IMG/VR virus record: IMGVR_UViG_3300042860_004240
Coordinates: 1-64,000 of that record
Length of the DNA: 64,000 bases
Source: a virus
Lineage: Duplodnaviria > Caudoviricetes
Reading direction: 5' to 3' (one strand)
Part shown: positions 1-25,701 of the stretch, in pieces
How positions within the stretch are numbered: position 1 is the first letter of the stretch
Layout of the letters: each line of letters starts with the position of its first letter
The notes under the pieces: model-generated
Database searches by the model: none
What the model was told of the DNA's origin: nothing
Seen by the model: only the letters and a program-made list of their open reading frames with translations
Translations under genes and position numbers: made by a program

Positions 1-170
1 GTTTCTGCCCTCTTTTTTTTGCAGACCACCCCGGAATGCCGTGTGATCGGATCCACGTTAACTGTCCGTGAACCTACCGTTGGCAACTCGGTAGCAAAAC
101 AAAGGCCACCAAGGCGGTACGTAGCCTCAGGTCATCCCGACCAACGTACACAACCGAAAGGAGAGCCGAA

Positions 171-596
171 ATGAGCTCACCAATCACAACCCCTGGAAAC
201 AGGCTGCATGTCCGGATCGTCACGATGCGGGAGCAGAATGGGCCTAACGGTCCGTTCGTCTCCTTGTCAGTGGCGGACGACTTTGACCCTGGGTTCAACC
301 GCATCAACGCCAACGAAGGTGATCTTGTCTCGTACACGATGACCCCTGAGGTGTGGGTAGAGTTGCTCAAGATCATCGTTGCCAAAACCGGTGCAAAGGC
401 ACAGACCAAGACGAGCAAAGGCAAGCGCCCTGCTCCCTACGTCTGCTTTGACAAAGTAGTCAAGCTCGTTATCGAGCAGACTGCTCCAATCAAGGTGACT
501 CGCAAGAGCCGTGTCGACGCCATCACCATCAGTGGTGACGTCAAGGCCGTGTCTTCACGTGACAAGCGTGCGGGCAACGGCATCAGCCTCGACTAG
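171..596 (+). CDS. Hypothetical protein, tandem paralogue 1 of 3
   Basis: RBS GAAAGGAG; shares FVSL.VAD, KVV and C-terminal RAGN(G/T)..D motifs with 791..1204 and 1542..1943. Confidence 0.85.
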   Translation: MSSPITTPGNRLHVRIVTMREQNGPNGPFVSLSVADDFDPGFNRINANEGDLVSYTMTPEVWVELLKIIVAKTGAKAQTKTSKGKRPAPYVCFDKVVKLVIEQTAPIKVTRKSRVDAITISGDVKAVSSRDKRAGNGISLD

Positions 597-624
597 CAAT
601 CGAGTTTCCGGGGAAAAGTAAATT

Positions 625-658
625 GAGGGTAGTTCCTAGCAAGGACTGCCCTCTTTTT
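625..658 (+). terminator. Intrinsic terminator, repeat copy A
   Basis: GAGGGTAGT..ACTGCCCTC stem then TTTTT; near-identical to 1377..1411. Confidence 0.8.
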
Positions 659-790
659 ATTGGAGTCCCACTCCGATGCTGGTCATCCGACTAGCAGGTG
701 GGGAGGCGAACTGTCTCGTAAGAGGCATTGCCCGGTTGGATACCGCTCTATTAGGGTGCTGCAATGCATCCAACCTGAAAGGAGGTTAAA

Positions 791-1204
791 ATGAACAACA
801 TCCCTTCGGGACGTGTACTTGTTCGTGTGAGCGTCGCTTACTCGAGGAAGAACACCGTCACCGGCGAGGTTTTCGTGTCGCTCAACGTAGCTGATTCGAT
901 GACCGCTGGGTACGAGCGTTTGCCACAAGCAGATCTCGTCACCTACGCCGTGGCCAAGGACGTGTGGACCATTCTCGTTCGCGAGATTGCAACACGCGGT
1001 GCCAAGGCTACCAAGGGTATTGACAAGAACAAGGAGTCCTACTCCAAGTTCTCGCCAAAGGTCGTTGAGTTGGTTATCCAGCTCACCGCTCCGATGGTGG
1101 TCAAGAATGTTGGTCGTAAGGGTTCGGCTCTCAGCATCGCTGGGAACGTATCCGCGATCAATGTTCGTGAGCGTCGTGCTGGCAACGGCATCGCTCTCGA
1201 CTAG
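791..1204 (+). CDS. Hypothetical protein, tandem paralogue 2 of 3
   Basis: RBS AAAGGAGG; ends RERRAGNGIALD. Confidence 0.85.
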   Translation: MNNIPSGRVLVRVSVAYSRKNTVTGEVFVSLNVADSMTAGYERLPQADLVTYAVAKDVWTILVREIATRGAKATKGIDKNKESYSKFSPKVVELVIQLTAPMVVKNVGRKGSALSIAGNVSAINVRERRAGNGIALD

Positions 1205-1376
1205 TCGATACACCTCGGTGTGACGGGTCTCGTACTGAACCAGCAGTGAACTGGGAAGCCGATAGCACGGCAAAGGTGGGCTCATGACCTACATGCTATA
1301 CATGGTTGTAAGAACCTAGTCAAGACGACCGATATGCACCGTTGCTGCGAAAGTAGGTCGAAATCAAACTTGATGG

Positions 1377-1411
1377 AGAGGGTAGTCCCTGGCAAGGACT
1401 GCCCTCTTTTT
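1377..1411 (+). terminator. Intrinsic terminator, repeat copy B
   Basis: AGAGGGTAGTCC/GGACTGCCCTCT stem then T-run. Confidence 0.8.
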
Positions 1412-1541
1412 ATTGCTTAATACCAAAGTCTGCTAGCTTACATAGATTACCGAAATGATATTCTAAACCGGCTAGCGCCCCCGTGGGGGGCTGGGGAGAA
1501 ACTCCCTGTATGTCAACTATAAATTACTGGGAGGTAATGAT

Positions 1542-1943
1542 ATGACACAGAAAGTCCAAGTACGGATCTCGACTGTTGCAATACGCGACGGGAAAGACTC
1601 CAAATTCGTAAGCCTCAATATCAGCGATGAGATGTCCCCTGGATATGATCGTCTTCCTGATGCTGAGTTGAAGTCCTACTCGCTCTCATTAGAGTTGTGG
1701 GACAAGTTCAAACTTCACTCTGAGAAATTGGGTGTGAAATGGACTTCGAAGAAGGACAAGAATGGCAAAGCGTATCTAACAAGTTCGCCGAAGGTGGTTA
1801 CATTTGATGTGGCTCTCACTCGGTCCTTGGTAGATTCCGTGAAAGACTTGGATCGTACTACACGTTCCTTGACCTTGAGCGGTACTGCTGGAAACATTCA
1901 AGTGCGTGAACAACGTGCGGGAAATACCGTCAATTTCGATTGA
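1542..1943 (+). CDS. Hypothetical protein, tandem paralogue 3 of 3
   Basis: RBS GGGAGGT; ends REQRAGNTVNFD. Confidence 0.85.
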   Translation: MTQKVQVRISTVAIRDGKDSKFVSLNISDEMSPGYDRLPDAELKSYSLSLELWDKFKLHSEKLGVKWTSKKDKNGKAYLTSSPKVVTFDVALTRSLVDSVKDLDRTTRSLTLSGTAGNIQVREQRAGNTVNFD

Positions 1944-1968
1944 TTCAAGTATTTCTTTACAAATAGTC

Positions 1969-2021
1969 GTGAGTGTCAGTATGTCTTCGGATGTGCTGAC
2001 ACTCATTACTCATATTTTTTT
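1969..2021 (+). terminator. Long cUUCGg hairpin / terminator
   Basis: GTGAGTGTCAGTATGTC-TTCG-GATGTGCTGACACTCAT then a nearby T-run. Confidence 0.65.
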
Positions 2022-2078
2022 GTGTGTAACTCAACTAGATATCCGAAAAATCCAATAAATTACTGGGAGGTAATTACA

Positions 2079-2531
2079 ATGACAAAAATATCCGCAATTC
2101 ATCCAAACACAATCCTACGTGGAACAAATTCAATTGAGCTATTAACTACATCAACAAATGTAAACTTCGTAAAGAAAACATTTGAGTGCAGATGGGATCT
2201 TGATTCTCTTTGGACTGACCACTTTACCCCTAACGATCAGATTCGTTCAGCATTTGTATACAAGCACGATAAGTTCAAAGATACATACAATGTACTTATT
2301 GTTTTCCTCACTCTTGCGGTTAACAATAGTGGTAAATATATTACAAAAGTTGAACGTAAGAAATATCGAATCAATTTAAATTCTAAAGCTATTTGTGTAG
2401 CATGGGGCAATAGAAAATCTTTTCCATTAGAATATAGTTTCAATGAAATCGATCTAAATGATTTGAAAGCACAACTGTTTGAGATAACATCTGAATCAGC
2501 TGTGTTGTTCAAACAGGTAGTTAACACCTGA
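2079..2531 (+). CDS. Hypothetical protein
   Basis: Start moved to ATG 2079, after the same AAATTACTGGGAGGTAAT leader as the gene at 1542. Confidence 0.75.
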   Translation: MTKISAIHPNTILRGTNSIELLTTSTNVNFVKKTFECRWDLDSLWTDHFTPNDQIRSAFVYKHDKFKDTYNVLIVFLTLAVNNSGKYITKVERKKYRINLNSKAICVAWGNRKSFPLEYSFNEIDLNDLKAQLFEITSESAVLFKQVVNT

Positions 2532-2627
2532 AAACCCCTCGGTCAGTCCTACCGGGATAAAGTTAATAATGGACAACACAAATTCTCTAAGAATAAAGAA
2601 ACTCATACAAAAGAAAGAAGATAACTT

Positions 2628-2825
2628 ATGTCTGGAATGATATACACAAAAGACGGAAAACTACACGATGTTTACGAGATGACTTTGCCTCAAGCAATTC
2701 AAGAATTCAGCTCAAGAACAATATCACTAACAGAAATTTGCGAAATGCAAGGTGAAATTATCCAGATTCTATCAGATAAAATCATTCACCTAGAAGATCG
2801 CCTAACCGCTCTAGAAAGGAGCTAA
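2628..2825 (+). CDS. Hypothetical coiled-coil protein
   Basis: ORF in co-directional run. Confidence 0.6.
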   Translation: MSGMIYTKDGKLHDVYEMTLPQAIQEFSSRTISLTEICEMQGEIIQILSDKIIHLEDRLTALERS

Positions 2826-2827
2826 TA

Positions 2828-3166
2828 ATGACAACTCTAAAAGAGCTCATTAACCATTACTGCGAAGATGAAGACGCAGTAATAATCGAAACACTTACAG
2901 AGGACATAGCAAACTTGTTATGCGATCCCAATGAAGATGATCTAGATGTCTGGAACGAACGAATTACAAAGTTCAGTAAAGATATCATTGAGATTCGTTG
3001 GAGAGGTTTAAGTGTTAGACGTGGAGTTATGTATGTAACCCGTTCCGAAGGTAATTGGATTGGATTTACAACAGCAGGAAATGGTACACCTGCCTACATA
3101 TTCCCAGTCAACGATATTTTCGCGGAAACCATTTATTGGGAAATTCTGTCGAGAACATTGTTGTAA
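2828..3166 (+). CDS. Hypothetical protein
   Basis: Abuts previous stop; RBS GAAAGGAG. Confidence 0.7.
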   Translation: MTTLKELINHYCEDEDAVIIETLTEDIANLLCDPNEDDLDVWNERITKFSKDIIEIRWRGLSVRRGVMYVTRSEGNWIGFTTAGNGTPAYIFPVNDIFAETIYWEILSRTLL

Positions 3167-3171
3167 AGATC

Positions 3172-3250
3172 CTACTTCCCCCAAGTAGAAGACGGAGTTG
3201 AGAGCCCCGTACTGTCCCCAACAGTAGAAAGCATTCGTTGCTAGCTCTCC
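3172..3250 (+). ncRNA. Candidate small RNA with C-rich loop hairpins
   Basis: CTACTT-CCCCC-AAGTAG and TACTGT-CCCCA-ACAGTA hairpins in intergenic DNA. Confidence 0.4.
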
Positions 3251-3455
3251 ATTTCTCTTATTAGGTAATAATAAAAAAAATATTAGAACCTGATATAGAG
3301 TACCACAAATAATATAATAAATCAACATTGATAACACCAAAGTAATAAATCAAATGCAACAATTATCAATCTTTCTATAACAAGGAAATAATTAATGTTT
3401 GAAGCATTTATTGAATGGGTATTATCAATCTTTATCGGTCCTGAAGGAGGAAACG

Positions 3456-3647
3456 ATGGATACTAATAACGAATATGACGAAGAAGAAACAAAAACACCA
3501 ATCGCTGGCAAAGCAGGCAAACTCACTAAAAGGTTTGTTAAGCTTGGATTAGCCGGCGTAAACAAAGCCAAAGAAGTTCCAGGTAAAACTGTAACTGCAA
3601 GCAAAAAGGGTGCTAGTAGCTTTAAAGAAGGCTACAAAAGCGCATAA
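3456..3647 (+). CDS. Small Lys-rich hypothetical protein
   Basis: ATG 3456 after AAGGAGG. Confidence 0.65.
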   Translation: MDTNNEYDEEETKTPIAGKAGKLTKRFVKLGLAGVNKAKEVPGKTVTASKKGASSFKEGYKSA

Positions 3648-3734
3648 CACATACAGAAGCGTTGATGATTGCAAAATCGTCAACACATCAAAAGTAATAA
3701 AACCAATAAATAACCTGAATAGGAGAACAATAAC

Positions 3735-4808
3735 ATGGCATTAGACTATGCTAAATTGGGTTCTACATTCGCCGGCTTGGAAGCATTTGCTGACAATCCA
3801 GAGGCAATGGAGCTCACACGTAATACTATCAACCTTCGGGTTGGTAAACAAACACCATTCAAAGGCACAATCGGCAACGAAAAGCTGAACGCCTTTGTAA
3901 CATTGAAGTCGGCAAAGTTGACTCGTCTCAGCTTGCTACGTCAATCCCGTAAGCAACCATCAACTTCAGGTAGTCCTGACTATTATATCGTAACTGGTGC
4001 ATTTTCGCCAGTCGATCTAGAAGTCATGATTGAATCTGATGGAGAACTCGTACCATTATATGATGTATGGCGCGAAATGACAAATGCTTTGGGTAAGACA
4101 AAATATGATTCAAACGCCTTCTTGGCTCACTTGACTCGTATTGGCCTCAACTATACCAATGGTGGATTCCCTATCTACTTCCAGCAAATGGGAGCAGATC
4201 CGGATAAAATTGAGTACACACTGAACATGTTCCGTGACCTCGGTGGTTATGATGATGTCGCTGCAATGCAGAAGGCAACACGTGACTCATCTAAGCCACA
4301 ACGCATGGAACGTACACTCAAGCATGACACTGGTATTCCAGTAACATTCTTTGAGCTCGGTCAAGTTGATCGTACCAAAGTCACTAGTGGACAAGGTTTC
4401 GTAGACCTTTGTGATTCAATGAGCGGTCAATTCAACCGTGTAACATCACAACGTCACGATGCTAACGTACTTGCTCGTGAATTGGAAACTAATACAAACC
4501 TTTCAGATAAGAGCATTAAGGAAATCAACGCTAAGATTAAATCTTTGCGCGATCAATCCGTACAATACTCAGCTGTATGGTCAGGTTCACAACAAATCAC
4601 TGTAACAAATCCTATCACTAAGGATGTAGAATACAGTGATCGTTTTGCACCAACAAATGCACCTTGTGGTCGCTTTGACCTACTCGTCGATGGAGAAACA
4701 ATCAACATTGACCTGTGGAAAAACAGCGTTCGCAACGATGGTAGTGCACCATCAACATCTGTTCCTGCTCTTAAAACAATTAGTGCAGATTCAAACCCAT
4801 TAGGTTAA
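3735..4808 (+). CDS. Hypothetical protein, 357 aa
   Basis: RBS AGGAGA; long ORF with frequent CGT/GGT/ATC codons; no motif recognised. Confidence 0.85.
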   Translation: MALDYAKLGSTFAGLEAFADNPEAMELTRNTINLRVGKQTPFKGTIGNEKLNAFVTLKSAKLTRLSLLRQSRKQPSTSGSPDYYIVTGAFSPVDLEVMIESDGELVPLYDVWREMTNALGKTKYDSNAFLAHLTRIGLNYTNGGFPIYFQQMGADPDKIEYTLNMFRDLGGYDDVAAMQKATRDSSKPQRMERTLKHDTGIPVTFFELGQVDRTKVTSGQGFVDLCDSMSGQFNRVTSQRHDANVLARELETNTNLSDKSIKEINAKIKSLRDQSVQYSAVWSGSQQITVTNPITKDVEYSDRFAPTNAPCGRFDLLVDGETINIDLWKNSVRNDGSAPSTSVPALKTISADSNPLG

Positions 4809-4826
4809 TTAACTTAATGTAAGAAC

Positions 4827-4913
4827 GTAAGCAAGTATTCCTTACACGCCAGACGAGAAGCGCTGGTAGTAAGGGATGCTTGTTTGCAAGTGTCAGGGAG
4901 CTCGTCTGTCCCC
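4827..4913 (+). ncRNA. Structured 3' RNA element (19-bp stem plus possible pseudoknot)
   Basis: Stem 4827-4845/4869-4887 with G-U pairs; CAGACGAG complementary to CTCGTCTG 4901-4908. Confidence 0.5.
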
Positions 4914-5018
4914 GTGATTGTAATAGATCAAAAATTGTACGCATTAACAGACCCACTCTCAAATTAAATTAATACACTAAAAAAAAATTATATTCATACA
5001 TAGACCAAAAGGAAACTA

Positions 5019-5264
5019 ATGGAACAATTGAAAGGACCTAACACACCTTGCATGATCTGTGAAAAAGCCATACTTTATCTATGGCCTCAACGTGATGCAA
5101 CTAACTTAAACAGTGCTGTCGATGTATCAATCGCCGGCTATTACGGATCTGACTTTGACACAATGAGATACACAGGTATCATTTGTGACCATTGTCTAGA
5201 TTCACTCATACAAAGAAATAAAATTGAATTCATAAAATCAATTTACCAAAACGAAAAGGATTAG
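5019..5264 (+). CDS. Small zinc-finger-like protein
   Basis: CMIC and CDHC pairs; RBS AAGGA. Confidence 0.7.
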   Translation: MEQLKGPNTPCMICEKAILYLWPQRDATNLNSAVDVSIAGYYGSDFDTMRYTGIICDHCLDSLIQRNKIEFIKSIYQNEKD

Positions 5265-5268
5265 AATA

Positions 5269-5589
5269 ATGAGAAACATTACTTTAATTAAAATGATCCC
5301 AACCACTGAAAATAAAAGTAATGCTTTATTCCGAATCTCTCCAGGTTTTGTAGAAAAGTATTATGCTAATTCAAACAACTTAAAAGCTGTTAATCACATA
5401 CTAGTTATTGTGATGCTCGAACTAAATGCCATACACGCTTATCCTTGCAACGAAAATGCAGAGATTAAAAACGTTGACTGGTATTTCGAAGAACCATATA
5501 CAGATGCAGAAGATTTCTTTAATGCATTCTACGAACTGGTAATCAAAATCAAAAATAAGAAAATTCATACACAACAAAGGAACATATAA
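5269..5589 (+). CDS. Hypothetical protein
   Basis: RBS AAAGGA, operon spacing. Confidence 0.65.
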   Translation: MRNITLIKMIPTTENKSNALFRISPGFVEKYYANSNNLKAVNHILVIVMLELNAIHAYPCNENAEIKNVDWYFEEPYTDAEDFFNAFYELVIKIKNKKIHTQQRNI

Positions 5590-5700
5590 TATGAATAAGA
5601 AAATAACAATAGGAACCTTGATCACTATGTTAGCGTTTACGTTTACATGGGTGTTCAAGAAAGACATCAAAATTGGATTCATGAAAGGGTGGAACCGGTC

Positions 5701-5922
5701 ATGAAAAAGTTCTGGCTATGGAACCTCAAGCTTACACCAGCATACCACTTCTCCAAAGGTAAATACGGCAAAGGACTACTCCTTCTAGCTGTTAACTTTA
5801 CAATTGGAGCTGCTATTGCAATGAAAGCTCAAGAAACAAAAAAGAACCCAATCAAATCAAAAACATCAAAAGAATTTGACGAAATCGTTAAATACTATGA
5901 ACAAAAGGCAAAGGTACAATAA
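5701..5922 (+). CDS. Small membrane protein
   Basis: Hydrophobic GLLLLAVNFTIGAAIA; start placed at ATG 5701. Confidence 0.55.
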   Translation: MKKFWLWNLKLTPAYHFSKGKYGKGLLLLAVNFTIGAAIAMKAQETKKNPIKSKTSKEFDEIVKYYEQKAKVQ

Positions 5923-6085
5923 TGGCTAACTTTCTAATAGGGGCTCTATTTACTTATGGCATATTTGCTACTCTAGCATTTATGGACAGTGAAAAAGACC
6001 TTAAAAAGTTAAACAGAACAATCAAAGCAAAAAAGAATCATCCATCATCTGGTGTGATTCCAATGAAAAGGAAAGTAGGTTAATA

Positions 6086-6373
6086 ATGTCATTGAACAGT
6101 ATAACCCATATGCAAGCTGCAGAACTCATAGATAGTGCTGCAATGGAGGATCGACTCTATCATTTCAATGGTGGACAATCCTATCTTAGAATCAGCAATG
6201 TATCAAATGTCCTCATGGTCATTGATACGAGCCGAGCAGATAAGGTAGAAGTAAGCCTACATGATGGTACAGAATACTTTAAAACTTACGCACAAAATTG
6301 CTTTTCTTATTCCGAAAGAATGAGAATGAATCCAATGCGTAATTTCTTTAAGCTACCTGTAGAAGCACAATAG
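6086..6373 (+). CDS. Hypothetical protein
   Basis: ORF in co-directional run. Confidence 0.65.
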   Translation: MSLNSITHMQAAELIDSAAMEDRLYHFNGGQSYLRISNVSNVLMVIDTSRADKVEVSLHDGTEYFKTYAQNCFSYSERMRMNPMRNFFKLPVEAQ

Positions 6374-6395
6374 ATCACCTCCAGTAATAATAATC

Positions 6396-6459
6396 TCTAG
6401 CACATAGGCATAGTATAGATACTCTCTATATTGTGTCTATGTGTTAGATTTTATTTTTT
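6396..6459 (+). terminator. 23-bp hairpin terminator
   Basis: TCTAGCACATAGGCATAGTATAG/CTATATTGTGTCTATGTGTTAGA then T-run. Confidence 0.7.
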
Positions 6460-6584
6460 ATTCACCACCGGCCGGAACGGCCCAACCCAAAACACTATTT
6501 TTAGCAAGCTTCTGGTAGTACTTTAAATTAATACTTTTATTTAAAAATACTACCTTATTAAAGCGCGCAAAAATACCCTACCAA

Positions 6585-6613
6585 TTGACAAAGGAAACAT
6601 AATGATATATACT
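6585..6613 (+). promoter_or_regulatory. Sigma70/SigA-type promoter
   Basis: TTGACA-N17-TATACT upstream of the HicA-like gene. Confidence 0.7.
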
Positions 6614-6660
6614 AGAAGCAATCCAGAAAATACAACTACATATTCAAGGAGTAACTAACA

Positions 6661-6873
6661 ATGCCTCGGCAGCATCAAAGCTCTAAAATGAAGAGCGTTC
6701 TTAAAGAACTAACACGGTTAGGATTCACCGTAGAACGTAACAAATCAGGTACCTACAAAATTGTGCCCCCTCCCAATATTGAAGGTCCTGTTTACACTAC
6801 GCACGGAACTGAATCAGCGTACCATCCAATGAGACGCGACTTTAAGAGGATGTATAATGTTAACATTGAATAA
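6661..6873 (+). CDS. HicA-like (dsRBD-fold) protein
   Basis: 70 aa, pattern L..L...GF.V.R.K.G.YK and later TTHGT, typical of HicA-like proteins. Confidence 0.6.
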   Translation: MPRQHQSSKMKSVLKELTRLGFTVERNKSGTYKIVPPPNIEGPVYTTHGTESAYHPMRRDFKRMYNVNIE

Positions 6874-6885
6874 CACTTGTATTAT

Positions 6886-6931
6886 GTGCGAGAGTGAGAA
6901 CACGTAGTGGTTGCGTGTTCCACTCTTGCGC
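6886..6931 (+). other. Long hairpin 3' of HicA-like gene
   Basis: GTGCGAGAGTG.GAACACGTAG/TTGCGTGTTC-CACTCTTGCGC; no U-tract. Confidence 0.6.
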
Positions 6932-6974
6932 CTGGTATTCCATTAACATAATTAAATCCAACTATAACTTTAAA

Positions 6975-6990
6975 TGTTCCACGTGAAACA
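6975..6990. promoter_or_regulatory. parS: parS centromere site
   Basis: TGTTCCACGTGAAACA matches consensus TGTTNCACGTGAAACA exactly; intergenic. Confidence 0.8.
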
Positions 6991-7361
6991 ATTACAGTAA
7001 TTTTGTTGAACAAATAAAGAAAAGGGTCCCTCGCAGGGGTAGACCCAAACAAAACTTATCTAAACGTATAACACCACTAAAAGGAAATATTATGAATCTA
7101 TTCATAGGTATCTACCTACTCATGAGTCTTTCGGTTCTTTTGTTCGCTAAGAACGTTAAAAGAAAGAAATAAGAACTCATACAAAGATTATGCCATAGGC
7201 TAACACCACGCTTCAATTAGCCTCTTAGAGGTTATATGATAATATAATGCTTAACACATCTAGGACTATATGAGAAAGCTCACTGTTCGCTCCTAAGCAT
7301 AATCCCCTCACCTTGGCTAAATCCAAAATAAAAAAAATCTCGATCAAAAAAGAGGACTATT

Positions 7362-8264
7362 GTGACTAACAATAAAGCCGATCTACCCTTACGGGTTAAA
7401 GAAGCATTAGTACTCTCCCTAGAAATGACTTATAAAGCATTATTACAGGAATACTATACAAAAAATGTTTTTACGGGCCGAACCCATACAGATAATGCGC
7501 AGCCATCTGATACGGCTCAAACATACGACCTTATTATATTAATAGAACATATGATTCAAGCTTTAGCTTACAAACCAAAGGAACAAACCATTATGAAAGC
7601 CACGTACAACAATTCCCAAATTGAAGGTACTCCAGAAGAAATAGCAGCATTCTTTGCTGCCATCTCGACTAAGAAACAAGACACTATTGAAGAAACCAAC
7701 CGGTTAATCAAGAAGACTCAAATCGACAAAACATACCCTCCTACAAAGCGTGATCCTAACTACTACGATAAGATTAAGCCAGCACAGACTTACACTGATA
7801 CCAAATCAAGTGTAAACTTTACTAATCAGCGCAATCTTATCCAAGCAGCTATTAACACGCAACCTCAACCAGAAACATTCTTTACCTATCCAGTAAATCC
7901 TACTACTGAATTCGAAATAGATCCTGCAGCTGAATTATTCCTAAATAATTTATTCTACTACGAGCCATCTAGAACCTCTAGCACTGGCCGAGGAGCATAT
8001 GTAGCTAAGATCCTATTAACCAATAGGGCTTACACAGTAAAAGATCTTAAAAGAATCAGTCTTGCTAAGACTCAATCTGTCCGCAAGACAATAGAAAGAA
8101 TGACACGAGCAGGATGCACATTTGACATTTCAGCTCCTAGAATGGGAGACAAAGTAATAGTAAAAATGACCTCTATGGGTACCATAGAACAAGCTATTGC
8201 AGTCTACCATGCTACAGGCAATAACAATACACCATTGCCTAATCTCTTTCAACAAGAGCAATAA
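7362..8264 (+). CDS. Hypothetical protein, possible C-terminal winged HTH
   Basis: YTVKDLKRIS..KTQSVRKTIERM pattern; internal ATG with RBS near 7593 could be the real start. Confidence 0.6.
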   Translation: MTNNKADLPLRVKEALVLSLEMTYKALLQEYYTKNVFTGRTHTDNAQPSDTAQTYDLIILIEHMIQALAYKPKEQTIMKATYNNSQIEGTPEEIAAFFAAISTKKQDTIEETNRLIKKTQIDKTYPPTKRDPNYYDKIKPAQTYTDTKSSVNFTNQRNLIQAAINTQPQPETFFTYPVNPTTEFEIDPAAELFLNNLFYYEPSRTSSTGRGAYVAKILLTNRAYTVKDLKRISLAKTQSVRKTIERMTRAGCTFDISAPRMGDKVIVKMTSMGTIEQAIAVYHATGNNNTPLPNLFQQEQ

Positions 8265-24368: not shown

Positions 24369-24545
24369 CTATCGTCCATGTTTTACCAGATGATCAGGAT
24401 CTTTAATTCTGTCCCAATACATTACAGCGTGCATTTGCTTGTACTCTATATTGTCGTATCCATATTCATATGATTCTACTGCTTTCATCAAGCCCTTGTG
24501 AATCAAAATTATTATTGTTGTTAAAATTATAAGTGCTATTATCAT
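24369..24545 (-). CDS. Small membrane peptide (58 aa), below ORF-track cutoff
   Basis: MIIALIILTTIIILIHKG..; TGATACTAT extended -10 just upstream on - strand. Confidence 0.4.
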   Translation of the reverse strand: MIIALIILTTIIILIHKGLMKAVESYEYGYDNIEYKQMHAVMYWDRIKDPDHLVKHGR

Positions 24546-24648
24546 GCCTGTATAGTATCACACTATCTTATTAAGTGAACAGCTTAACTACTAGTATCTT
24601 TAAATTAGATACCACCTATCTACAATCCAAATATGGAGTTTAAATCAA

Positions 24649-25101
24649 ATGAAATCTACAAGAAATAAAACTACCAATATAGCATTTCCTTCTAACTGGG
24701 AAAATTCTTATTTAATATTTTACAATTTTAATTCAGAATCTGTAAAGGAAGTTTTATACTTTAAATCAATTACAGAAGCAACAAATAAATCAGGAACTGC
24801 TTTAGGCTTCTATGGTGTCAAAGCTTCCGCATACGGCATCAGGGTGCCCGCTAACGCCACTCATTGGTGTTTAGCTATCTTGGGTGGTTCTGCCCCAATT
24901 ATAATTATGGAGCATCCTATTGCTGACAGTATGACTCAAAATGAATATCCTTTAAATCAAGACGTTTCTGTATTCTTTAATAGGTATTCTAAAAATGTTA
25001 AATTTATGATTGGTTCTAGCAATTATTCTAGATCAAAAACTAAAATACAAAATCTTCCAAATTATGATATAATAAACGATCTTCTTAATCAAGAAAGTTA
25101 A
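24649..25101 (+). CDS. Hypothetical protein
   Basis: RBS GGAG. Confidence 0.65.
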   Translation: MKSTRNKTTNIAFPSNWENSYLIFYNFNSESVKEVLYFKSITEATNKSGTALGFYGVKASAYGIRVPANATHWCLAILGGSAPIIIMEHPIADSMTQNEYPLNQDVSVFFNRYSKNVKFMIGSSNYSRSKTKIQNLPNYDIINDLLNQES

Positions 25102-25156
25102 CAATCATGTTATTATTTTCCAGCCTTTCAACTCGAATACCTACCCTGTAACATAC

Positions 25157-25232
25157 AGGGCGGTATACCCTCACTCTTATAAAGTGTTGAAAGGTTAGTC
25201 GGTCCACGTGGGTTCAATCCCCACCCGCCCTA
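25157..25232 (+). tRNA. Non-canonical tRNA-Ile(UAU) with displaced D-loop
   Basis: AGGGCGG/CCGCCCT acceptor, A discriminator, GTGGG-TTCAATC-CCCAC T arm, CACT-CTTATAA-AGTG anticodon arm; only 7 nt between acceptor and anticodon arms. Confidence 0.75.
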
Positions 25233-25254
25233 CTAACAAAATTAAGGAGCTTCT

Positions 25255-25605
25255 ATGAAAAATTATAGCCAACTTATTAAACAAATAAATGAGTCTATAA
25301 AAGAAGAAAAAAACAATATAGAATCTACTTCTGAATCTATATCTAGTTTAGTCCAAACTTCTATTAATACTTACGAACAGATTAAACTTCTTCCTAAAAG
25401 TTCTATCTCTGATCTTACTAGTATTTTTGTATTAATTGAATCTTTTTCTCAATCTATAGTTGATATATGCAACAAGTACATTGCTTCCAATGTATCTAAT
25501 CCTGACTTTGTCGATTTATTATTAAAACTTAGGAATCTTCAAAACGATCTTCTTGCTTCTTTGATTATACTAAGAAGCAATTCGGAAGAATTTAATAAGT
25601 TTTAA
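25255..25605 (+). CDS. Hypothetical helical protein
   Basis: RBS AAGGAG. Confidence 0.65.
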   Translation: MKNYSQLIKQINESIKEEKNNIESTSESISSLVQTSINTYEQIKLLPKSSISDLTSIFVLIESFSQSIVDICNKYIASNVSNPDFVDLLLKLRNLQNDLLASLIILRSNSEEFNKF

Positions 25606-25701
25606 CTCTTAAGCTGTTTTTTTTCTAAACTATTAAAAACAAAACCGTAAATCATACAAAAGTTTTGGTCACTTCTATACTAATTTTAAAGGAATATAAA
25701 C

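Follow-up and report, generated by a model that had tools for sequence, protein, structure and literature searches.

Bacterial transfer RNAs (tRNAs) are described as cloverleaves in a 2024 paper, according to which all known bacterial tRNAs have this form and natural armless tRNAs are found in mitochondria only (PMC11551756). Here we analyzed an element at positions 25157–25232 (+ strand, 76 nt) of a viral genome fragment from the class Caudoviricetes, namely the first 64,000 nt of the IMG/VR record IMGVR_UViG_3300042860_004240; this whole stretch is called the window, and all positions are window coordinates. From its sequence, which was re-read directly, and from its relatives we infer that the element is probably a phage elongator tRNA-Ile(UAU) of non-cloverleaf architecture that would supply the decoding of AUA. 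Between its acceptor and anticodon stems lie 7 nt only, TATACCC (25164–25170), the D hairpin being absent there, and the 20-nt segment TGAAAGGTTAGTCGGTCCAC that is located 3' of the anticodon arm (25188–25207) contains GGT (25193–25195) and AGTCGGT. An acceptor stem with discriminator and a T-arm are present as in a regular tRNA, and the D hairpin is the part that is missing. The gene is conserved, compensatory changes maintain its helices with the unusual one among them, the bases specific for the isotype track the anticodon, and the layout is common to many unrelated phages.

Compared to an ordinary class I tRNA-Ile, the element shares the 7-bp acceptor stem, A73, the 5-bp T stem with its T54-T55-C56-A58 loop, the anticodon loop of the form C-U-NNN-A-A, the length of 76 nt and the neighbourhood of phage tRNA genes. 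It differs in that the strands of its D stem enclose the anticodon arm, that the D-loop follows after this arm and that the anticodon stem consists of 4 bp and a U–U. Features of this kind are partly found in the D-arm-less mitochondrial tRNAs, such as mammalian mt-tRNA-Ser(AGY) and nematode mt-tRNA-Ser, which also possess a three-way junction and a short connector from the acceptor to the anticodon helix and have no D hairpin (PMC7609411, PMC4013460). According to the same sources these tRNAs are confined to mitochondria, work with co-evolved partners and have lost the contact between D-loop and T-loop, whereas the family described here, whose member in the window lies in a virus record, retains the GG together with a canonical T-loop and a 15:48-like pair that covaries, and it would have to work with an unadapted bacterial machinery. 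The synthetic suppressor tRNA mini HisT likewise lacks the D hairpin and is tolerated by bacterial EF-Tu, ribosome and synthetase, those of E. coli (with HisRS as the synthetase) accepting such a D-arm-less tRNA without adaptation, but unlike the family it is man-made, Y-shaped and without D-loop mimicry (PMC11551756). In the permuted tRNA genes of the red alga Cyanidioschyzon merolae the order of segments departs from the cloverleaf as well; there, however, the permutation affects the entire gene and a normal mature tRNA is recovered by processing (PMC3728597), while the members of the family have normal ends and an internal permutation that is retained, as seen from covariation. Finally, the allo-tRNAs (8/4 or 9/3 tRNAs) are also non-standard and mined from metagenomes, some of them being located in phage tRNA clusters and some having a UAU anticodon, but they possess four arms in normal order with altered acceptor and T lengths (PMC5389517), in contrast to the standard 7/5 branch and the re-ordered D/anticodon domain of the family. 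A published description of the layout was not found in the full-text literature, although supplements of tRNA surveys (e.g. PMC5389517) could contain such genes. An earlier note on this DNA had mentioned a reported class of inside-out phage tRNAs; this could not be verified, as the phrase occurs in 0 papers and no such description was found in the literature.

The proposed strand order starts with the acceptor and U8-A9, which would be followed by the strand that forms the 3' side of the D stem in a cloverleaf, the whole anticodon arm, a short linker with GAAA, the strand that forms the 5' side of the D stem in a cloverleaf and, directly after it, the D-loop sequence (A14, R15, G18, G19), before a CAY segment leads into an ordinary T-arm. 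The D/anticodon domain would be circularly permuted, with 22–45 preceding 10–21, so that the D-arm would be re-threaded and not lost. In canonical numbering TA would correspond to U8-A9 and the next four bases to 22–25, ending in the conserved C25, after which comes the 26-like C; ACC at 25167–25169 would be the canonical 3' D-stem strand 23–25 and GGT at 25193–25195 would be 10–12. Behind the 26-like C we would then place the anticodon arm 27–43, the linker, G10-N11-N12-U13, A14, R15, G18, G19 and position 20. The segment TAGTCGGTC would accordingly read U13, A14, G15, U16, C17, G18, G19, U20 and C, and the Y of CAY would be position 48. Since the domain is permuted and not deleted, the three helices together with the 15:48 and the G18/G19–T-loop contacts could still form an L-shape. 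From the letters, C 25170 could also pair with G 25189.

To a large part the argument is comparative. In a blastn search the 77-nt stretch alone matched 89 phage records, and the flanking genes, which were searched as well, gave no match among isolated phages. The isolates carrying a family member include 82 Streptomyces phages (79–87% identity), Rhodococcus phage Peregrin, Microbacterium phages and the crAss-like Kehishuvirus tikkala. The matches in Streptomyces and Rhodococcus phages are unannotated genes with 79–87% identity, a support that is independent of the family model R1 described below. A degenerate search pattern of 39 letters, which was derived from an alignment of five sequences, matched at least 120 viral contigs, and altogether at least 128 instances with at least 105 distinct full elements were collected from viral contigs and phage isolates. 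Among 185,579 prokaryote species represented by one genome each, the pattern matched 19 cellular contigs, 18 of them from metagenome-assembled genomes (MAGs) or uncultured assemblies and one from an isolate of Achromobacter anxifer.

For the analysis of covariation 102 of the 105 elements, nearly all of them from viral contigs, were aligned, L049, L052 and L084 (locus numbers) being dropped for weak T or acceptor pairing; the element itself aligns without internal gaps except for a length difference of 1–2 nt in the D-loop-like segment. The pairing scheme is 98.2% paired, compared to 64.0% in column shuffles (0 of 500 reach the observed value) and 35–45% in slid controls, and the covariation score is 0.880 versus 0.214. 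All seven acceptor pairs change on both sides among 101 distinct relatives, and three of the 4 pairs of the anticodon stem as well as four of the 5 pairs of the T stem covary. The D-stem-like helix (columns 11–13/37–39) is 99.7% paired in the alignment and shows compensatory changes at two of its three pairs, columns 11–39 and 12–38 each occurring with four pair types (CG, AU, GC, UA). It is compatible with 104 of the 105 elements, with eight Watson–Crick combinations and one true mismatch. As both varying positions were N in the search pattern, this covariation is not an artefact of how the sequences were collected. RNAalifold returned exactly the same 19 pairs without being prompted, the D-stem-like helix included, and in a mutual-information scan of all column pairs the top pairs were all pairs of these helices. 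The pairing of ACC and GGT around the anticodon arm, which had been proposed from the single sequence, is thereby confirmed. All further features listed in the earlier note (acceptor, discriminator, T-arm, anticodon loop, TATACCC and the 20-nt segment) were also found in place, and the pairing of the anticodon stem is the sole correction: the loop CTTATAA fits the rule of U33 and a purine at 37, while the stem has four Watson–Crick pairs and a U–U in place of 5 clean pairs. A model built from the homologues, as the note had suggested, gave 88.3 bits for the element, which is itself a member of the training set, versus 19.9 bits for the best ordinary tRNA of the window (model R1). The element also matches the definition of the family, a 3-bp helix around the anticodon arm followed by T-A-R-N-N-G-G and by CAY before the T stem.

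Beyond the helices, the bases expected to hold the fold together were analyzed. The 15-like base (two after the relocated strand, G 25198 in the element) and the 48-like base are A–T in 63 of the 105 elements and G–C in 24 of the 105; this is the top non-helical pair by mutual information, and it holds within the Ile-type subset too. The canonical Levitt 15:48 pair shows just this alternation of A–T and G–C. Invariant in the 102 sequences and outside the search pattern are the T-arm equivalents of G53, T54, T55, C56, A58 and C61, including the T-loop residues that make contact with the D-loop, and the same is true for the CA of the CAC before the T stem. All Arg-type members (25 of 25) have an A after GG, whereas this base is T (78) or C (2) in the 80 Ile-type members and A in none of them. 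A20 is a determinant for ArgRS in the D-loop of E. coli tRNA, and the strict coupling of A after GG to Arg anticodons suggests that the relocated segment is read as a D-loop by the synthetase. Together with the 15:48-like covariation this isotype-specific base bears out the idea of the earlier note that the D-loop sequence has been moved into the variable region. For IleRS of E. coli the determinants are N34-A35-U36-A37-A38 of the anticodon loop and the discriminator A73; the element fits them with the loop C-T-T-A-T-A-A and an A at 25232, and 80 of 80 Ile-type members have A as their discriminator. The CCA end is part of the gene in 19 of 25 Arg-type members versus 12 of 80 Ile-type members.

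The anticodons of the 105 elements are UAU (40), GAU (34), ACG (20), CAU (6), UCU (2), CCU (2) and UCG (1), and CCG as well as additional UCU, UCG and CAU members were obtained by searches with the model and with a descriptor. All are exclusively of the Ile type (UAU, GAU, CAU) or of the Arg type (ACG, CCG, UCG, CCU, UCU) in the same loop frame. In a descriptor scan of 1.32 Mb, a sample biased to loci already known for Ile or Arg members, no other isotype with the same topology was found among 119 distinct sequences except for one TGC parse that was judged spurious. A tree of the 102 members was reconstructed without the columns of the anticodon loop and of position 20, and on it the Arg/Ile label requires 3 switches; a single Arg clade was not rejected by the approximately unbiased (AU) test (p 0.249), which has low power with about 70 columns. 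UAU anticodons are rare in bacteria, with Mycoplasma mobile as an example of a bacterial tRNA-Ile(UAU). The rarity assumed in the earlier note thus holds for bacteria but does not extend to phages, as Streptomyces phage Targaryen (gene 109) and Kehishuvirus tikkala also carry an ordinary cloverleaf tRNA-Ile(UAU).

The family is largely overlooked by standard tools. ARAGORN, which found four ordinary tRNAs in the window (Leu-UAA, Met-CAU, Arg-UCU and Gly-UCC), made no call at the element in the same scan and left the family member uncalled at 18 loci holding one (L006 and L151 being the same Targaryen gene). With cmscan at the Rfam gathering threshold the element was not listed either. A profile search of the virus record with RF00005 gave a borderline score of 30.9 bits at a cut-off of 29. 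The expectation that tRNA finders may miss this gene is mostly right. When cmscan hits with E up to 10 were considered, the top clan match was transfer-messenger RNA (tmRNA; RF00023) with 17.8 bits compared to a gathering score of 47; a tmRNA tRNA-like domain was rejected, as the acceptor and T-arm alone align and 328 model positions are skipped by an element of 76 nt. Plastid-ycf2, RAGATH-7, mir-44 and SNORA12, also from the Rfam search with E up to 10, are far under their thresholds and were taken as chance matches. Annotations reflect the same difficulty: among the matches listed (60 rows) a tRNA annotation over the element is present solely in Streptomyces phage EGole, whose gene 108 (L149 299–375) is labelled as tRNA-Leu reading UUA. 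Its loop is actually GAU (Ile), ARAGORN is silent there, and the label is a mis-typing. In Kehishuvirus and Microbacterium phage A3Wally the element is located in unannotated gaps of tRNA arrays, and members of the family sit within such arrays at several loci.

Being uncalled by ARAGORN, unlisted at the Rfam gathering threshold and unremarkable in single-sequence folding, the element might be taken for a decayed or fragmentary tRNA gene, either a pseudogene or an integration relic, with the resemblance elsewhere being due to chance. We regard this as barely credible, because more than 100 distinct copies in unrelated phages have the same layout with compensatory changes in every helix, and the nearest relative (L063) shows 3 differences from the element without a single broken pair. 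Moreover, the element is intergenic in a gene-dense region and its acceptor ends are intact.

A function as elongator tRNA-Ile(UAU) agrees with the codon use of the phage. At a GC content of 35.5% (35% for the 81-kb virus record), AUA accounts for 468 of the 1267 Ile codons in the window (37%), which equals 27.6 per 1000 codons. The other tRNAs of the window read UUA, AGA, GGA and AUG, and the AUA reader completes a tRNA set that is typical for an AT-rich phage. A second Ile tRNA was not found in the 81-kb record using RF00005 and model R1, the record being 38% complete according to CheckV. The element is located between the small + strand open reading frames (ORFs) 24649–25101 and 25255–25605. 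Ten ORFs of the window including both neighbours were searched against PHROG, which gave one helicase, one protease and one ATPase family and no family for the flanking ORFs.

Several observations weigh against this reading. The anticodon stem carries a U–U on top of its four Watson–Crick pairs. The single-sequence fold is no better than that of shuffled sequences (z −1.22, 26 of 200 shuffles being equally stable), and the minimum-energy fold contains the acceptor stem, the T-arm and a 4-bp anticodon stem and is devoid of the ACC/GGT helix; such folding is uninformative here, because a 3-bp helix needs tertiary support. Positions fixed in the search pattern, TAT, C 25170 and GAAA among them, are invariant by construction in the collected alignment, with the TAT connector being present also in four genes of phage isolates that were recovered by blastn. 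The type of anticodon does not follow the GC content of the locus (UAU against GAU, p 0.14), which gives no support for codon tracking across the family. With respect to RNA, the phage is present in lake-water metagenomes, and metatranscriptome contigs from 4 of 4 runs (3 studies) cover the element (25049–25250, 25066–25250, 25097–25233 and 25092–25271), but as these are assembled contigs without readable ends, from libraries that may hold DNA, they are a weak hint of expression. The ends of the contigs (at 25250 in two runs belonging to one study, at 25271 and 25233 in the other runs) and the uncovered parts of the 1-kb stretch were not accepted as evidence for transcript ends. Finally, Targaryen (Ile-GAU), A3Wally (Arg-ACG) and the loci L072 and L034 (both Ile-GAU) possess, in addition to the rewired gene, an ordinary tRNA whose anticodon is identical, and such a duplication of an ordinary isoacceptor fits a role other than plain decoding.

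Such a role could be that of a tRNA mimic, which by retaining the features recognized in tRNA-Ile or tRNA-Arg binds, distracts or resists a host factor, for example a defence nuclease directed at tRNAs, a toxin that acts on these tRNAs or a modification enzyme, with little or no use on the ribosome. That a phage with the rewired gene often carries an ordinary tRNA with the same anticodon would agree with a mimic, as would the RNA ligase, polynucleotide kinase, Ro-like protein and tmRNA that Targaryen and similar carriers encode. Cleavage of tRNAs is a widespread anti-phage strategy from which phage tRNAs escape (PMC10264068, PMC13056530), and the restriction to two isotypes is explained more easily by a specific antagonist than by codon supply. 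On the other hand the element is the sole Ile tRNA in the 81-kb record with AUA as a major codon, the parts relevant for EF-Tu and charging are under selection (the covarying 7/5 acceptor–T helix, A73 and the A20-like base in Arg types), and the family includes the complete anticodon sets for Ile and Arg, as expected of tRNAs that serve in decoding. A pure mimic is thus possible, although we consider it unlikely. Similarly tentative, and also rather doubtful at present, is the idea that the re-threading represents a second natural solution to the tRNA fold, which would have spread among unrelated phage lineages and be accepted by unmodified bacterial synthetases, EF-Tu and ribosomes, and by which Ile and Arg tRNAs would become invisible or resistant to a putative host factor (a nuclease, a toxin or a modification enzyme) recognizing the ordinary D-arm of these two isotypes; the layout would thereby act in counter-defence and not in codon supply.

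Our preferred reading as an elongator tRNA also includes a route of maturation. In the region 24500–25700 we found 11 promoter-like sites versus 6.7 ± 2.9 expected, none of them directly upstream on the + strand, and 0 terminators, hence no sign of an own transcription unit, and the ribosome-binding site of the next ORF starts 10 nt past the element. Excision from a polycistronic transcript is therefore likely, and it would be performed by RNase P and 3' trimming. CCA would be added by the host and the tRNA would be charged by the host IleRS, delivered by EF-Tu and used on the ribosome. Another path would be the cutting and re-ligation of the precursor at the RNA level into the cloverleaf order, for example by phage RNA repair enzymes. 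Some carriers do encode RNA ligase and polynucleotide kinase, and permuted tRNA genes of the red alga are mended through circular intermediates (PMC3728597). Here, however, the ends are already normal acceptor ends, so that circularization would not restore the order and the RNA would have to be cleaved and joined at several places; from the covariation of the helix and of the 15:48-like pair it is evident that selection acts on the permuted form; no RNA ligase was seen among the ten window ORFs searched against PHROG, the two flanking ones included; and the metatranscriptome contigs show no joints. We therefore think that re-ligation is very improbable.

Additional observations were made on the relatives. 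Full members with 84–88 bits and the loop CTTATAC, having C for A at position 38, occur at L093 4663–4739, L070 5795–5871 and L043 2645–2721 and had been missed by the first pattern. The same topology with other junctions and without GAAA is present at L061 14212–14288, L085 2702–2781, L114 near 3300, L115 1185–1260 and L022 872–950, most of these being Arg-UCU and one Ile-UAU. As these divergent members keep the topology with other linkers, it is the layout that is conserved and not the GAAA sequence, which points to an origin of the layout that is old or repeated. At L022 872–1125 (identical to L034 and L088) three Ile genes follow each other on the same strand, the first being ordinary with GAU, the second rewired with GAU and the third divergent and rewired with UAU. 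The Achromobacter anxifer contig (L136) carries a rewired Arg-CCG gene at 6534–6610 within a tRNA array, the sole match in a cultured bacterium, and 14 ARAGORN tRNA calls (one untyped) as well as a two-piece tmRNA in 1–8000. In a MAG contig of the Actinomycetota (L140 3170–3320) a rewired Ile-UAU begins one base past an ordinary tRNA-Ile(GAU), within a series of 23 tRNA genes that spans 3 kb. Two contigs from the RNA runs X15 and X18 match the conserved core alone (25163–25203) and continue as the 3' part of a different family member, showing that other rewired tRNAs are also present in freshwater RNA libraries. The Streptomyces phages Mildred21 (L150) and Targaryen (L151, 60000–105000 of the record) contain many of their tRNAs as pairs with the same anticodon (Met-Met, Pro-Pro, Asp-Asp, Asn-Asn and Leu-UAG twice), and in Mildred21 two genes for Tyr occur that are 83 and 75 nt long; second copies in such pairs may be structural variants in general. 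Both phages also encode tmRNA, a Ro-like RNA-binding protein, RNA ligase and polynucleotide kinase. The coordinates of all parts of the element are collected in Table 1.

Table 1: Parts of the element in their order on the strand (window coordinates).
Feature	Position	Strand	Remark
Acceptor stem 5' strand AGGGCGG	25157–25163	+	7/7 Watson–Crick with 25225–25231
Connector TAT	25164–25166	+	U8, A9; third U may face U 25196
ACC, 5' strand of D-stem-like helix	25167–25169	+	partner 25193–25195
C, position-26-like, between D-stem-like helix and anticodon stem	25170	+	fixed in search pattern
Anticodon stem 5' strand T + CACT	25171–25175	+	partner of CACT is AGTG 25183–25186
7-nt anticodon loop CTTATAA	25176–25182	+	anticodon UAU (TAT) at 25178–25180, reads AUA
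Anticodon stem 3' strand AGTG + T	25183–25187	+	T 25187 opposite T 25171 (U–U)
Linker TGAAA	25188–25192	+	joins anticodon stem to relocated D-stem strand; GAAA fixed in search pattern
GGT, 3' strand of D-stem-like helix	25193–25195	+	covaries with 25167–25169
D-loop-like segment TAGTCGGTC	25196–25204	+	G 25198 covaries with base preceding T stem
CAC before T stem	25205–25207	+	last C is the 48-like partner of G 25198
T-arm, stem GTGGG/CCCAC, loop TTCAATC	25208–25224	+	5 bp
Acceptor 3' strand CCGCCCT and discriminator A	25225–25231 and 25232	+	CTA next, CCA not encoded

If the element and its relatives are indeed tRNAs of this kind, widespread natural re-threaded tRNAs working on ordinary bacterial machinery would overturn the view that all bacterial tRNAs are cloverleaves, and they would allow structural biologists to test on natural molecules which connections of the L-shape can be dispensed with. 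They would also provide new scaffolds for the engineering of orthogonal tRNAs. For hundreds of phage annotations a missing Ile or Arg tRNA would be added, and estimates of phage codon autonomy would shift. As carrier phages are available in culture with hosts from Streptomyces, Rhodococcus, Microbacterium and Bacteroides, these points are directly testable. Should the layout serve counter-defence, it would point to undiscovered host factors acting on tRNA-Ile and tRNA-Arg.

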